Source of the DNA: a virus
Lineage: Duplodnaviria > Heunggongvirae > Uroviricota > Caudoviricetes
DNA: 36,573 bases
Reading direction: 5' to 3' (one strand)
Virus record (IMG/VR): IMGVR_UViG_2728369393_000013
Shown one piece after another: positions 1,205-33,474 of this stretch (its first letter is position 1; each line of letters opens with the position of its first letter). A program made the position numbers and the translations under genes. The notes beneath the pieces are model-generated. The model saw nothing but the letters and a program-made list of their open reading frames with translations. It did no database searches and was not told the DNA's origin.

Positions 1205-1759
1205 AAAATAATCTCGGTGTGAGATGCTTTACGTCTTCCAAGCCCCCTTCCTTGCCGTAAATGGAAAGATACATCTAATTATAGAATTTATATGTTTTAC
1301 CCTACGGCAGTGCTGGCCATTCAATATCCTGTGCAGTTGACGTATCAACACGGTTCAGCAATACCCGATACTTTTTCCATGCTTCCAGCAACGAGATTTC
1401 TTCCTCCGTTGCAATTTCCAGATCTGCAGCATCCTGAAGCGGCGCAATATGCTCACTGGCTACCTGCATCAGGTTGTTTTTTGTTTCTTCCGCCTCCCGG
1501 ATCCGGAACAGTTTTTCTGCTTCTGCATCTTTCACCCAGGCTGTGCCGTTCCACTTCTGAAACTCCCCTTCCGGCGATAACCAGGTAACATTTTCCGGTA
1601 ACGGACCGAGTTCAGAAATAAATAACGCGTCCCCTGACGCTACGTCATAAACCGTTTTACCCGATGGTCTTCAACGAGATGCCACGATGCCTCATTGAGG
1701 TAGCCTGAGTTTAACGGACACTCCTTCCTGAAATAGAATGGCATCAGAAGGAGCTAATA

Positions 1760-19390: not shown

Positions 19391-19590
19391 TTCACTTTCT
19401 TAAATCTAACGACAGACGGCTAACATTTAAGTATTGTGAAATATTATCAAATGCAATCATCATTGATTTACAAAAGATACATTTTGCCCCGAAAGGATTC
19501 CTGTCAGAAACATCAAAAGATGATGTTCTATACTGAGAACCATGGCAACACGGGCATCTAAAGTGAATATGGTTTGTAATATTTTCTACC

Positions 19591-19803
19591 TCAAAGTGCC
19601 ACAACATGAACAGCCGCGGGGCCTTTAGGTCCGTTCTCAATACCAAATTCGACTTCCTGATTCTCAGTTAACGTTTTGAAATCGTTGCTCTGAATAGCTG
19701 AGAAATGGACAAACACATCTTTGCTACCATCTTTCGGCGTGATGAAACCAAAACCTTTTTCAGGGTTAAACCATTTCACTAAACCAGTCATTTTGTTAGA
19801 CAT
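19591..19803 (-). CDS. cspI: Cold shock protein, CspA family (70 aa)
   Basis: [38 protein letters not shown]... canonical CSD with RNP motifs. Confidence 0.9.
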
Positions 19804-20166
19804 CATTATTACCTTTTGAAGAAGTTAGCCCTTGGGCAGAATGGTCCGAAAAAAAATATCAGAGAGAAAAACCAACAAGGAAATCTCAAGAGGTACAAAT
19901 AATAAAATTATAACAATGACTGCTTCAGATAATTTTGTAACAAACCAGAACACCATTAACGCATGATTAACCAACCATAGCAAGGATTACTTTTGTAAAG
20001 AAAAACACACGAATGAAACAATAGCTTTATTTATTAATAAAACGTGTCATTCTGTCTAATGACCTTTTATCTTACCCTTAAGATTTCAAGGATTTTGACT
20101 CATGGAAGAGTCCTTTTTATTTAAATTTCACATTCAGCGCTAAAAATAATCCGATTTAATATTAAT

Positions 20167-22760: not shown

Positions 22761-23039
22761 TATTGTGGTGCTTTTTGTGGGAGTCATCCACTTACGCACT
22801 TTGTTTTGCTATGCTAGCAGTTAGCTTCTGCTGTAAAACTATTCATGCAGCAAACCTGCACTTCACCACAATGGTTAGCATACTTTTCCTGATTAAGTTA
22901 TTGCCAAATATGCTGGCCATTGTTTCATGTATTGGATCTCCTTACTATTTATTAAAGAGATCCAATATTCACCACTCTGTCTGTATCTCCACTCAGGCAT
23001 CAGCCTTCTTCGTTATCGTATACAGACAAACTATTAATT

Positions 23040-23255
23040 TTAATCAGTAATTATGACATTTGCTGCTGCAGGACCTTTAGCACCACTCTCTACAGAGAAG
23101 GTAACCTTTTGACCTTCAAATAAGGTTCGAAAATTATCATTCTGAATCGCAGAAAAATGCACAAACACATCTTTACTACCATCAACAGGAGAAATAAAGC
23201 CAAAACCTTTATCAGCGTTAAACCATTTTACTAAACCAGTCATTTTATTTGACAT
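23040..23255 (-). CDS. cspB: Cold shock protein CspB-like (71 aa)
   Basis: [53 protein letters not shown]... Confidence 0.9.
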
Positions 23256-23555
23256 TCTACATTCCTTAACTTGAGCCTTTCGGCATAAATGGCTTGTATA
23301 ACAGAAACGACTTCGTACTTAATTGGAGAGACTCAAAGAAGGAATAAGTGAATAACACCTGAAATGAGAACTGCTTTAGTAAACTACTTCGTATATCGTC
23401 TGTTCTTCAAACCGACGCAATCATTAACGCATAGTTGAACATATGAAGCAATGTTTATTTTAGACATCCAGCCATCTTCAACCCCATCAAAAAACTATAG
23501 CTTTCTTCAGGAACGTGTGTATAGTGCGCCAAGTTATCAGTATTAAGGAATTTTT

Positions 23556-29581: not shown

Positions 29582-30042
29582 TCATCACCCGATACAGCGC
29601 GCTTGCTGCTTTTCCGTAAGCACCGCTCACGACGTGCCAGAAAATTGTTTCGTTCTGGCTGGGAGTGGCTTTCACGGAATGCCGCCATCCACACGGTTGC
29701 AGCACGACGGTATAAGCCCCTGGACTCCAGTTCTTCAGCCTGGCGGGTCAGGCACAAAATCACCCGGGGATCGTTAGTGCCGACATAGAAATTGCGCACA
29801 GGTCTGGTTTCACGAACTGGTTGTGGTTCCGGCTCCTGCGCTCTCTCAGTCAGGCGCGGGAAATGTCTGCGTGTATCTCCTTCACAACGGTGAGCCACAC
29901 GCCCACTCTGACGTAACTTGCTTGCAGACTGCAGAACGCGCTGCCGTGAGTAACCTGCAAAAGCATCCGCAATGTCTCCGGAAGTACACCCCGGATGGGC
30001 TTCAATGAATTTCTGAACTTCATTCAAAAGACTCATGATCAC
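29548..30042 (-). CDS. Putative PerC-family (Pch-like) transcriptional regulator with N-terminal extension (164 aa)
   Basis: AEELESRGLYRRAATVWMAAF resembles the PerC core motif as recalled; not verified by search. Confidence 0.4.
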   Translation of the reverse strand: MIMSLLNEVQKFIEAHPGCTSGDIADAFAGYSRQRVLQSASKLRQSGRVAHRCEGDTRRHFPRLTERAQEPEPQPVRETRPVRNFYVGTNDPRVILCLTRQAEELESRGLYRRAATVWMAAFRESHSQPERNNFLARRERCLRKSSKRAVSGDEWYLSGNYVGA

Positions 30043-30857
30043 CCCCTGAATCCTGCCGGGATCTGGCTGTAGTCCACGTTGTCGTAACTGGCTTTGAAGT
30101 ACGGGTCCTCGCGTCTGGCTGCAGATACCGCAGGAACTTCCCAGGATTCTTCGAAATGACGATCCGGACCAAAGAACGTGACAGCCTGTTTCACAAATTG
30201 TGTGCCGCTGTTACCCATCGCAGATACCCAGCCCGCGTAGCGTTTCACACCTTCCAGCATGGTTTCGGGTTTTACCCCCTCATTCAAACGGGCTTTCCAG
30301 GCTTTGAAGGCTGCAGATTTTGAATTGCCACCAGCACGTTTGGGATATGCCAGCCATGCCTGCTCAAACTCCGGAGAGTATTCCGGTCGGTTTGAACGAA
30401 CTCGCACAGACTCATCAGCAGATGCACCAACAGCTATTGGTTCTTTGACTGGTTCTTTGACTGGTTCAAAAGAGTGACTGGTTCTGGGTGAATCTCCTGC
30501 ACTACCCCCTGGTGCAACTCCTGCACTACCTGGTGAATTTGCTGCACCAGATAGTGAATTATTTGCACTACCCCCTAGTGAATCTCCTTCACCATCCAGA
30601 TGAAGGAGATAGATATTACTTGAGTTACCTTTTTCACCTTTCCGGGTGACTTTTTTTACCAGCCCGGACTCACAAAGGGCCGCAATATGATTCATCACAG
30701 AACGTTTGCTAATCTCGCACTGGTCAGCAATATGCTGGTAGCTGGGCCAGCACTCACCCTGATCGCTGGCATTATCAGCCAGCTTGATCAGAACCAGTTT
30801 TCGCAATGGATTACCCACTCGAATTTTCATCGCTTTAACCATCAGCTCCATACTCAT
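30039..30857 (-). CDS. Putative replication initiator (N-terminal HTH domain, Gly/Ser-rich linker encoded by iterons)
   Basis: N-terminal winged-helix-like region (LVLIKLADNASDQGECWPSYQHIADQC...); central protein repeats coincide with direct DNA repeats; position downstream of cro/cII-like genes. Confidence 0.5.
   Translation of the reverse strand: MSMELMVKAMKIRVGNPLRKLVLIKLADNASDQGECWPSYQHIADQCEISKRSVMNHIAALCESGLVKKVTRKGEKGNSSNIYLLHLDGEGDSLGGSANNSLSGAANSPGSAGVAPGGSAGDSPRTSHSFEPVKEPVKEPIAVGASADESVRVRSNRPEYSPEFEQAWLAYPKRAGGNSKSAAFKAWKARLNEGVKPETMLEGVKRYAGWVSAMGNSGTQFVKQAVTFFGPDRHFEESWEVPAVSAARREDPYFKASYDNVDYSQIPAGFRG
30437..30600. repeat. Iteron-like direct repeats inside the replication gene (candidate phage origin)
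   Basis: GGTTCTTTGACT tandem x2.5 at 30437-30467 and five imperfect ~21-bp units GTGAATCTCCTGCACTACC-like at 30485-30595, followed by AT-rich stretch 30600-30640. Confidence 0.55.
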
Positions 30858-31090
30858 GCTGCACCTCCGAGATGCTTCATGTTTTTTCCGGAGCGAAAGG
30901 CTATAAGCGGCATACTGACGCGGTAATTACGGCCCAGCGGTTCACAAACCACCTTCTGACATTCACGGTCAACCAGGCTAACACGTAGAACATGCCCTGC
31001 AGGCGTGGTGTACCACTGACCAACGGTAGGAATTGATGTTTTTTTACGCTGAAGCAAACGGCAAATATTGAGGATCAACGGATTAAGCAT
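30854..31090 (-). CDS. Hypothetical protein (78 aa), translationally coupled to neighbours
   Basis: ORF overlapping stop of upstream and start of downstream gene by 4-8 nt. Confidence 0.4.
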   Translation of the reverse strand: MLNPLILNICRLLQRKKTSIPTVGQWYTTPAGHVLRVSLVDRECQKVVCEPLGRNYRVSMPLIAFRSGKNMKHLGGAA

Positions 31091-31919
31091 GACGATGCCC
31101 TCCGCTGATATTCAGGAAACGGTGAATATGAAGATTAGCCTTATCCGCCAGACGAATACGTTCAGCCTGCAAGTTAAGAAGGGTTTCTACCAGAACCTGA
31201 TGCGCCTGCGGATCCGAAAGAGTTACCTTGCGCAGAGCACGTAGTGCAGTTGTTACATAGCTGAGTTTATGTAAGTCTTCATCATTCAGACGAGTGAGGG
31301 CTGGGACAGTAGCCATGATGGCAGCCTCCGTATGCAATGGATAACTTCCACCACCGGAAACGCCAATTTCGCTGGTGGTGAACTGAGCAGGGTTGGCGTA
31401 ACCGGCGCATACGGAAACCGGCGCACCTTTCGGTGCCCCCACCCAGCCCACCATAATTTGGGTATAGCTGAGTTGTAGCAACAAAAAAGACGCTAACGCG
31501 CCAATTGTCGCCGTATGCAATTCCAGGACGCCAATCCCGGCACCCGCTTTATAAGGTGCCTGAACAGTGTAACGTCCCGGAATGGCAGAATCAATGTGCT
31601 GGTGGTCCTTCACACTCAACAAAATCACGCCTGAATTTCCACAAAGGGCTAAAGCACTCATGCGGGTAGTCTTTGCGAAGATAGATAACGCGCTGTGTTT
31701 CTGGCTCCCAACGAATAACATGAACATAAAGTCCTCTTCCGTCACGAAACCAGCGGTTAAGTTCCTGCACAACTCGCCCCCCACAGTCAGGTAAAGTTCT
31801 CTGTGGTTACTTACAGCCAGGAGATTTGGTAATCTGCATTCATGCCGTAACAACAGGTGTTCAGCGACGCTGACCACCAGCTGTTGCGACAAACGGTTAT
31901 TTGCCGTTAAACTGTTCAT
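31083..31919 (-). CDS. Hypothetical protein (278 aa) in replication module
   Basis: Long ORF in operon orientation; no motif recognised by eye (no Walker A). Confidence 0.45.
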   Translation of the reverse strand: MNSLTANNRLSQQLVVSVAEHLLLRHECRLPNLLAVSNHRELYLTVGGELCRNLTAGFVTEEDFMFMLFVGSQKHSALSIFAKTTRMSALALCGNSGVILLSVKDHQHIDSAIPGRYTVQAPYKAGAGIGVLELHTATIGALASFLLLQLSYTQIMVGWVGAPKGAPVSVCAGYANPAQFTTSEIGVSGGGSYPLHTEAAIMATVPALTRLNDEDLHKLSYVTTALRALRKVTLSDPQAHQVLVETLLNLQAERIRLADKANLHIHRFLNISGGHRHA

Positions 31920-32799: not shown

Positions 32800-33474
32800 A
32801 TGAAAACAGTCCATGACATCCGGCGGTCTAACGCCAGAAAACTGAGAGATGGTGTTGGCGGGAATTCTTCCTTTGCCACCATGATTGATCGCGAGCCAAC
32901 CCAGACCAGCAGGTTTATGGGAGATGGTGCTACTAAAAATATCGGTGACAGCATGGCACGACACATCGAAAAATGTTTCGACCTGCCTGTCGGATGGCTC
33001 GATCAAGAACACCAGACAACGAACATCACAAAAAAACCTGATGTTTCAATCACTAATAAACAAATCACATTAGTCCCTGTCATATCATGGGTACAGGCCG
33101 GAGCATGGAAAGAAGTTGGATATTCTGAGGTTGATTTGAGCACAGCAGAAACGTATCCCTGCCCTGTACCCTGTGGGGAAATGACTTATATCTTGCGGGT
33201 GATAGGTGATTCAATGATTGATGAGTACCGCCCGGGAGACATGATTTTTGTCGATCCTGAAGTACCTGCCTGCCACGGTGACGACGTTATTGCATTGATG
33301 CACGATACAGGTGAAACCACCTTCAAAAGGTTGATAGAAGATGGGACACAGCGTTATCTCAAAGCGTTAAACCCAAACTGGCCTGAGCCTTACATTAAGA
33401 TCAACGGTAATTGCTCTATAATTGGTACTGTGATTTTCTCAGGAAAACCAAGAAGATACAAAATCAAAGCCTAA
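32800..33474 (+). CDS. CI-type repressor with C-terminal S24 (LexA-like) autopeptidase domain (224 aa)
   Basis: C-terminal GDSM (Ser nucleophile) and downstream Lys; architecture like P22 C2/lambda CI. Confidence 0.8.
   Translation: MKTVHDIRRSNARKLRDGVGGNSSFATMIDREPTQTSRFMGDGATKNIGDSMARHIEKCFDLPVGWLDQEHQTTNITKKPDVSITNKQITLVPVISWVQAGAWKEVGYSEVDLSTAETYPCPVPCGEMTYILRVIGDSMIDEYRPGDMIFVDPEVPACHGDDVIALMHDTGETTFKRLIEDGTQRYLKALNPNWPEPYIKINGNCSIIGTVIFSGKPRRYKIKA

Follow-up and report, generated by a model that had tools for sequence, protein, structure and literature searches.

An origin of replication situated inside a gene of the lambda O type is a textbook arrangement. In phage lambda the origin consists of four 18-bp iterons with dyad symmetry (positions 39034–39118, in gene O), which are followed by a 38-bp AT-rich region (PMC3349717). 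Iteron-type plasmid origins comprise a winged-helix Rep protein (RepE, pi, TrfA), its iterons and an unwinding element of repeated 13-mers (see also PMC4980987). For Shiga toxin (Stx) phages, the papers on the "Eru" replication types classify gene content only and state that the replication of Eru phages is unknown (PMC8951638, PMC8044961). The helix-turn-helix proteins of the "non-lambdoid" Stx-phage regions of type Eru6 (and Eru5, 8, 11 and 13) carry the HTH_36 domain (PMC8951638), and neither the Eru papers nor the HTH_36 papers mention an origin or iterons. Here we analyze a caudoviral DNA of 36,573 nucleotides (IMG/VR record IMGVR_UViG_2728369393_000013; this whole stretch is referred to below as the window), in which a minus-strand gene for an initiator with an HTH_36 domain harbors an array of palindromic repeats. 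Our computations suggest that bases 30437–30594 are quite probably the replication origin of an SfV/Eru6-type lambdoid prophage, embedded in its own initiator gene.

The putative origin is formed by five 19-bp iterons and a 37-bp box. The iterons are located as follows:

30576–30594, minus strand: iteron 1, TGGTGAAGGAGATTCACTA, dyad score 6/9
30552–30570, minus strand: iteron 2, TAGTGCAAATAATTCACTA, dyad score 6/9
30531–30549, minus strand: iteron 3, TGGTGCAGCAAATTCACCA, dyad score 6/9
30510–30528, minus strand: iteron 4, TAGTGCAGGAGTTGCACCA, dyad score 6/9
30486–30504, minus strand: iteron 5, TAGTGCAGGAGATTCACCC, dyad score 4/9, abutting the box

Their coding-strand consensus, T(A/G)GTG-N9-CAC(C/T)A, is a 19-bp imperfect palindrome, and the five 19-mers follow one another with a spacing of 24, 21, 21 and 24 bp, i.e. 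about two helical turns. The iteron region (30486–30594) encodes residues 88–124 of the initiator, between its winged-helix domain (residues 1–88) and its C-terminal domain (residues ~158–272). An earlier note on this DNA had described a 12-bp unit repeated 2.5 times and five imperfect ~21-bp direct repeats. Both are borne out by Tandem Repeats Finder, which reports the 12-bp unit (2.5 copies at 30438–30467, 100% matches, score 60), a 24-bp period at 30487–30537 (score 63) and a 21-bp period at 30521–30572 (score 55). These three arrays, at 30438–30572, are the top tandem arrays of the 36.5-kb window; the rest score 39 or less, and the program detected no further repeat cluster there. The repeats were also claimed to lie in coding sequence and to give rise to a Gly/Ser-rich linker. 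They are indeed located within the minus-strand open reading frame (ORF) 30039–30857 and encode a Gly/Ser/Ala-rich stretch at residues 89–124 (GEGDSLG, GSANNSL, SGAANSP, GSAGVAP and GGSAGDSP for the ~21-bp units) together with EPVK repeats.

The repeats exceed the needs of the encoded protein. This was established by a control of 20,000 synonymous recodings, in which the protein was kept and the codons were drawn from local usage. The mean pairwise identity of the five 19-mers is 14.1 of 19 positions versus 8.4 ± 0.6 in the recodings, and their mean dyad score is 5.6 of 9 versus 2.6 ± 0.5. Not one of the 20,000 recodings reached the observed identity or the observed dyad score, and none contained any 10-mer in three copies. 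Owing to the nested palindromes, each single strand of the iteron region is more stably folded than its shuffled versions (z = −2.6 and −3.2).

The same DNA repeats could have arisen only as a side effect of slippage, which lengthens and shortens a flexible linker of low complexity; nothing would bind them, and any constraint would act on the protein. They do encode a Gly/Ser/Ala/Pro-rich segment predicted to be disordered, the number of units varies from 1 to 9 among near-identical alleles, and recent duplication by itself would yield high DNA identity among the units of one gene. Homologous genes provide the means to separate duplication from selection. From prophages, 80 loci were picked by N-domain protein similarity only, one genome per species, and phage homologues found with tblastn were added; the non-redundant set consists of 47 genes with less than 85% nucleotide identity in the N-domain. 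The absence of the repeats from homologous initiator genes had been named in advance as an outcome that would speak against an origin. Arrays were found at the same place, with 3–6 units in each gene at near-fixed offsets from the box (−19/−21, −45, −66, −87 and −110), the last iteron starting 19–24 nt ahead of the AGA codon of the box.

Several features of these arrays are at variance with slippage. The same DNA unit is translated in two or three frames and yields different peptides: in 22 of the 47 genes one iteron stands in a different reading frame, with a spacing of 23+22 instead of 21+24, so that GVVQEIHQ appears for GGSAGDSP and GVCHEIA for PPMPSDGT. The units are palindromic far beyond chance. 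A dyad score of at least 5/9 is attained by the iteron consensus of 43 of the 47 genes but by 5.5% of the other 19-mers of the same genes, and for a score of at least 6/9 the corresponding values are 31 of 47 and 1.25%. In three Shewanella loci (L197, L198 and L200) the iterons are inverted, relative to gene and box, with respect to the E. coli unit; the sequence CCTAGTGAATCTCCTGCACTACC of L197 is the reverse complement of the window's iteron. Finally, the arms of the units co-vary with the predicted recognition helix of the initiator. Helices of the type CE[IM]S[KR]RS are paired with TRGTG..CACYA iterons, CECSKSAVR with TATGCC..GCA, CEIDRSTVRK with TGTAGGCCC..AGCAC and the phi24B helix CEVSRSTVKS with TGGGGCAGGAGCTGCCC, while M-R-H helices are accompanied in 4 of 4 cases by GTGA(C/T)..GTCAC arms. 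This co-variation looks like the pattern predicted by direct recognition. Together with the fixed offsets from the box, these observations make slippage as the whole explanation highly improbable.

The number of iterons is variable among close relatives. Near-identical E. coli alleles (P0001–P0057) contain 1, 2, 5, 7, 8 or 9 iterons and 1–3 EPVK units, in proteins of 242–302 residues, and cdtI has three additional iteron units. It is possible that the alleles with one or two iterons belong to replication-defective prophages. A parallel change is described for lambdoid Stx phages, which have either 4 or 6 iterons, with 13 extra residues in O (PMC7466680).

The second part of the putative origin consists of the following elements:

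30451–30487, minus strand: conserved 37-bp box, CCAGAACCAGTCAC TCTTTT GAACCAGTCA AA GAACC, which encodes P-RTSHSFEPVKEP in the disordered linker
30437–30484, minus strand: four phased GAACC motifs, starting at 30484, 30467, 30455 and 30443 (spacing 17, 12 and 12 nt)

The general form of the box is CCAGAACCAGTCAC-TCTTTT-GAACCAGTCA-nn-GAACC, directly after the last iteron. The GAACC array takes in the 12-bp tandem GAACCAGTCAAA (2.5 copies), which encodes EPVK-EPVK-EP. There are exactly three copies of GAACCAGTCA in the window, all within 30446–30484, and the repeat finder reports TGACTGGTTC three times, at 30446, 30458 and 30475. The 12-bp unit is part of the 37-bp box, not an isolated oddity. 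The composition of the box is 54% AT. As a single strand it is unstructured, folding no better than shuffles (z = +0.65 and +1.25). In phi24B O (L005) and in a Morganella phage (L009) an extra AACCAGTCAA is present upstream of the iterons, inside the wing codons LNQSN; its presence may be due to chance, or it may represent one more box motif, flanking the array on the opposite side.

Judging by the homologues, the box is the most conserved DNA of the gene family. Of the 80 loci selected by protein, 74 contain it, 32 of them without a single deviating letter; judged from the record titles and their taxonomy, the hosts represent about ten orders of Gammaproteobacteria. The conservation profile extends from −2 to +34 and stops sharply at +35. 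The exact 27-mer of the box was encountered in no fewer than 120 viral contigs; all copies belong to this gene family, with 74 different linker variants ahead of them. Codon usage demonstrates how strict this conservation is. In the box, pairs of the 47 genes with the same residue shared the codon in 96.4% of cases (7050/7317), versus 38.7% in the N-domain, where the maximum in any single column is 61% and the invariant Arg and Ser columns give 16%. With the box defined by its peptide alone, Arg is encoded by AGA in 71/71 genes, Ser by AGT in 69/69 and by TCT in 69/69, and Glu by GAA in 69/69.

The sharp stop at +35, and the position of the box exactly at the join between the module of N-domain and iterons and 10 unrelated C-domain families, might indicate that the box is a recombination linker at the junction of exchangeable modules, without a role in replication; the iterons could still be an origin. 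The modularity itself is evident. Behind the same module of N-domain, iterons and box, the 47 genes carry C-terminal parts of 10 unrelated clusters, the iteron classes re-assort with these clusters while the box stays constant, and phiP27 has only the C-terminal part in common with the window gene. A linker of this kind is, however, unlikely in view of the substitution pattern. Every box position is kept across hosts of very different base composition and against local codon usage: in 25 box copies from Pseudomonas (GC content at third codon positions, GC3, of 0.68) AGA accounts for 1.6% of the Arg codons outside the box and is found in 25/25 inside. The variants of the box are single-base and non-synonymous, and its six-fold degenerate codons carry no synonymous change. 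Moreover, phased GAACC arrays are kept in LESphi3 and MD8, Psychrobacter Y8A and Arthrobacter Abidatro, which share no recombinable 27-mer.

These phages are among the distant homologues that lack the full box, several of which keep phased short repeats at the equivalent place. LESphi3 and MD8 have four GAACC motifs with a phasing of about 11–12 nt, Psychrobacter Y8A has three copies of GAACCTATCAAT, and Arthrobacter Abidatro has three copies of GAACCGTCCTT with an 11-bp period, the repeat therefore being translated in three frames. In Vibrio pA2SJ1 the 12-bp repeat GATCCTAACAAT is present twice, with a degenerate third copy. In Bifidobacterium PMBT6 the iterons are perfect palindromes (GGTGAC-ACCCAT-GTCACC), and a single GAACC follows them. 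SfII contains different repeats and lacks the GAACC motif at the equivalent place.

The reading frame of the box is not constant either: a different frame is used in 7 of the 80 loci. The Shewanella frame gives HPEPVTLEPV in place of PRTSHSFEPV for the first half, and the boxes of L197, L198 and L200 have an internal spacer that is shorter by 2 nt (GTCAC-TTTA-GAACC); the second half yields N-Q-S in Avibacterium. By these computations, iterons and box alike are constrained as DNA, independently of the reading frame. Co-variation of the box variants with the wing residues was not seen by eye, L133 and L136 having the same wing and a different box position +4.

A conserved coding sequence might also act in the mRNA, as a target of a small RNA (sRNA), a pause site or a frameshift site. 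Such a role would be in line with the frame shifted by one base, which ends soon after the box (PEPVTLLNQSKNQSKNQ followed by a stop codon), and with two truncated alleles ending in that frame. We consider it extremely improbable. No Rfam family matches the iteron and box region, the single strands fold no better than shuffles (see the z values above), and the box is kept despite its translation in different frames among homologues, which is incompatible with a frame-specific recoding signal. The truncated alleles, from Pseudomonas bharatica (L150) and Erwinia tracheiphila (L181), are in the shifted frame when they reach the box and terminate right behind it (..HPEPVTLLNQ and stop), which leaves a protein of the N-domain only. 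These alleles may represent pseudogenes, or else code for naturally shortened DNA-binding proteins.

One further proposal we make tentatively, considering it possible rather than likely: the GAACC box may be an unrecognised and widely shared origin element, a phased repeat directly after the iterons. On it the conserved parts of HTH_36-type initiators, or a universal host protein, would open the duplex or admit the helicase. In some homologues the gene on the 3' side is annotated as a P-like loader (RAH1, MD8 and Y8A), a replicative helicase of the DnaB type (BUCT708) or a gp4-type helicase (phi24B). This supports an initiator role of the common N-domain, and the variety of these genes shows the box to be independent of any single helicase system. 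If the proposal is true, the GAACC box would play the part that DnaA-trios play beside DnaA boxes, and thousands of temperate phages would possess the element, from those of Gammaproteobacteria to those of Actinobacteria and with any helicase system.

The gene that contains the putative origin has the following organization:

30039–30857, minus strand: initiator gene, an ORF of 272 residues, in which a disordered linker joins the N-terminal winged helix to a helical C-terminal domain
30594–30857, minus strand: part coding for the winged-helix DNA-binding domain (residues 1–88), from the AlphaFold model
30042–30386, minus strand: part coding for the C-terminal domain (residues ~158–272), from PHROG matches and modularity

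The earlier note had allowed that the protein might prove unrelated to replication initiators. Instead, it matches PHROG 270 ("replication initiation protein") at 2.5e-88, and its residues 17–67 belong to Pfam HTH_36 (1.8e-11, 44.1 bits with a cut-off of 25); a match to DnaD_N is sub-threshold. Further PHROG matches of the C-terminal domain are 26426 ("replication protein", 1.2e-62) and 1701 ("DnaD-like helicase loader", 6e-33), as well as "primosomal protein". The recruitment of host replication proteins is probably the task of this domain. The initiator has 5569 homologues at E ≤ 1e-5. In the AlphaFold model a confident winged helix is formed by residues 1–89 (pLDDT, the per-residue model confidence, of 81–94 over residues 1–70), with α-helices at 3–11, 17–28, 40–47 and 51–64 and β-strands at 67–73 and 79–85. 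The predicted recognition helix is 51–64 and the wing is 67–85. Residues 90–157 have a pLDDT below 50, and iterons and box therefore encode a linker predicted to be disordered; the helical C-terminal domain comes after it. A sequence search with the initiator found no relatives among solved structures. Foldseek with the model gave only generic winged-helix folds, DnaD-N among them (E ≥ 9e-3), and the fold therefore tells "DNA-binding" and nothing more specific.

With these parts the origin could work in the following way. Dimers of the N-terminal winged-helix domain would bind the iterons and form an O-some-like complex. The GAACC box, for which no single-strand structure is predicted, would be the site of duplex opening, or of a second conserved contact made by the initiator or a host protein. 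The C-terminal domain would then recruit the host helicase, a step proposed because the examined early region (27.6–33.5 kb) contains no loader or helicase gene. Transcription of the gene would pass through the origin, as in lambda.

The palindromes could alternatively be operators serving autoregulation, incompatibility or exclusion, with the true origin elsewhere. Palindromic sites are typical of repressor operators, and cloned lambda iterons inhibit the replication of incoming phage (PMC3349717). Against this, no promoter-like site was found in 29900–31200, and the sites are intragenic, downstream of the DNA-binding domain, as in lambda. Furthermore, 3–6 sites placed every two helical turns beside conserved unstructured DNA correspond to the layout of an origin, and the window has no other repeat cluster. 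We therefore regard operators as very unlikely. One terminator-like hairpin with a T-run is located at 30634–30649 on the plus strand, antisense to the initiator gene; the count is within chance expectation.

The earlier note had also placed an AT-rich stretch next to the repeats:

30598–30657, strand not assigned: mildly AT-rich stretch (GC 0.35), which encodes the conserved wing KGEKGNSSNIYLL

The stretch is present but weak: its GC, the minimum for 60-nt segments around the repeats, ranks at about the 10th percentile within the window and about the 4th within the early region. It lies on the N-terminal side of the repeats, unlike that of lambda, which is on the C-terminal side. Family-wide, the AT excess is +8–10% at −135 to −105 relative to the box and just +7–11% after the iterons. 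As an unwinding element the stretch is a weak candidate and was rejected, since it is largely explained by the Lys, Asn and Tyr codons of the wing. GATC does not occur between 30161 and 30761.

Several observations weigh against the origin assignment. The AT content is 62% in the 40 bp that follow the first part of the box, versus 78% in lambda. Neither a DnaA box nor a consensus site for integration host factor (IHF) is present in 29900–31000; the box, read by eye, is at best two mismatches from the IHF consensus. No helicase, primase or loader gene was found in the examined early region. All five iterons of the window share one reading frame, and the window taken by itself therefore does not separate duplication of units from selection. 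The homologues, on which this separation rests, give counts that are not phylogenetically independent. The assignment is computational throughout, and the role of the box is suggested by its conservation and position only. On balance we retain the origin as the preferred reading, as the earlier note had proposed, with the arrays of the homologues, the palindromy of the units, their changes of frame and their co-variation with the recognition helix in its support.

The surroundings of the gene are those of a lambdoid early region. The S24 repressor gene (32800–33474, plus strand) is followed on the minus strand by CII(CP76)-like, Ash-like and 78-residue ORFs and then by the initiator, which thus occupies the lambdoid early-operon position downstream of cI/cro/cII-like genes. 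Its stop overlaps by 4 nt (30039–30042) the start of a PerC/YfdN-like gene, after which come Dam, RusA and KilA-N genes. The initiator gene is 98–99% identical to those of SfV, mEp460, cdtI, the Stx2c phages and Stx2a_WGPS2. With Stx2a_WGPS2 (AP012537.1 / NC_049941.1), the reference phage of the "Eru6" replication type (PMC8951638), the nucleotide identity is 98.8% across the entire initiator gene, the comparison being of this gene alone; by this sequence evidence the prophage is to be assigned to the SfV/mEp460/Stx "Eru6" type. Among 5426 complete E. coli genomes, 2718 have a match to the initiator gene, and in 897 the match covers at least 80% of it.

Just upstream of the initiator gene, inside or beside the Ash-like ORF of 278 residues, two Rfam matches above the gathering score were obtained, namely the C4 antisense RNA (31371–31458, minus strand, 80.7 bits) and the Hfq-binding RNA isrK (31483–31559, minus strand, 61.2 bits). 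These matches suggest an immunity module of the P1/P7 c4-ant type. Elsewhere in the window Rfam recognizes two cspA-type thermoregulator leaders (19545–19961 and 22977–23416, both minus strand, 109.8 and 159.4 bits) and IS009 RNA (1336–1534, minus strand, 221.4 bits).

Phage-sized records filed as plasmids also carry this initiator family, e.g. NZ_CP148393.1 (44.6 kb), CP077666.1 (38.9 kb), NZ_CP118695.1 (41.5 kb) and others. The one examined, NZ_CP148393.1, is circular with no plasmid replicon type given, and its examined 8.8-kb stretch has no other gene annotated for replication. These records are probably excised or replicating phage genomes, which would be circumstantial support for an origin in the initiator gene.

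A published description of the origin of this initiator family, of its multi-frame iterons or of the GAACC box was not found; an early mention in the SfV genome paper is possible. Searches of the literature for the motif strings GAACCAGTCA and RTSHSFEP returned no phage papers. The replication of lambdoid Stx phages is reported to be necessary for effective Shiga toxin production (PMC7466680), and our analysis provides a base-pair-resolved candidate origin for a very common group of enterobacterial prophages that includes "Eru" Stx phages. It also offers a case of overlapping codes, in which a non-coding function appears to fix every letter of a coding DNA, whereas the frame of the encoded peptide may vary. 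The phased GAACC box would be a new conserved origin element, present whichever helicase or loader module follows. The succession of a winged-helix domain, 3–6 palindromes and the box may serve as an annotation rule; it could locate the origins of phage genomes by the thousands and anticipate which of these phages have a common origin specificity.

Four known systems can be compared with the locus described here. The alpha protein of phage P4 binds, through its winged-helix domain, the TGTTCACC iterons of the P4 origin, and the right arm of the window iterons reads (A/G)TTCACC. We note this as a lead only. Alpha is a primase-helicase, and the P4 iterons lie outside its gene. In the basal unwinding system of bacterial chromosomal origins (DnaA box plus DnaA-trio) double-strand sites are directly followed by a short phased repeat, conserved across distant taxa, which guides the initiator onto single-stranded DNA. 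The period of that repeat is 3 nt, in contrast to 11–12 nt in the window (17 nt for the first interval), and the window initiator is not an AAA+ protein. Iteron plasmid origins resemble the window in having a winged-helix initiator, phased sites and neighbouring short direct repeats about one helical turn apart. They differ in that Rep monomers occupy their iterons, which are directly repeated outside coding sequence, whereas the window sites are palindromes inside it. They also possess DnaA boxes and AT-rich 13-mers, while in the window the repeats are not AT-rich and DnaA boxes are missing from the interval searched.

The earlier note had likened the locus to ori-lambda. In lambda and in the Stx phages 933W and P27, as in the window, the origin is placed inside the initiator gene, in the DNA of the linker between N- and C-terminal domains. 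Origins of this type have 4–6 dyad iterons of 18–19 bp spaced 20–24 bp, and the five 19-mers of the window are of the same kind. In both cases the number of iterons changes the length of the protein, and N-domain and origin form one module with an exchangeable C-domain. Two differences concern the DNA: the iterons of lambda are followed by 38 bp of 78% AT and those of the window by the 37-bp box of 54% AT with its phased GAACC, which is not AT-rich; and lambda has the gene of a P-type loader directly downstream, where the window has the PerC/YfdN-like gene and no P gene. The proteins are also different. The N-domain of lambda O belongs to Phage_rep_O (PF04492, 5.7e-36) and that of the window to HTH_36, not to PF04492. 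An HHpred link of lambda O to HTH_36 was reported (PMC5509034) and was not reproduced here: alignment of lambda O with the N-domain by hhalign gave a probability of 5%, i.e. no detectable similarity. The claimed mirror image of ori-lambda holds for the architecture, with its intragenic dyad iterons, and not for homology. With the same layout and another protein family, the element would therefore work like ori-lambda without being a member of that family.

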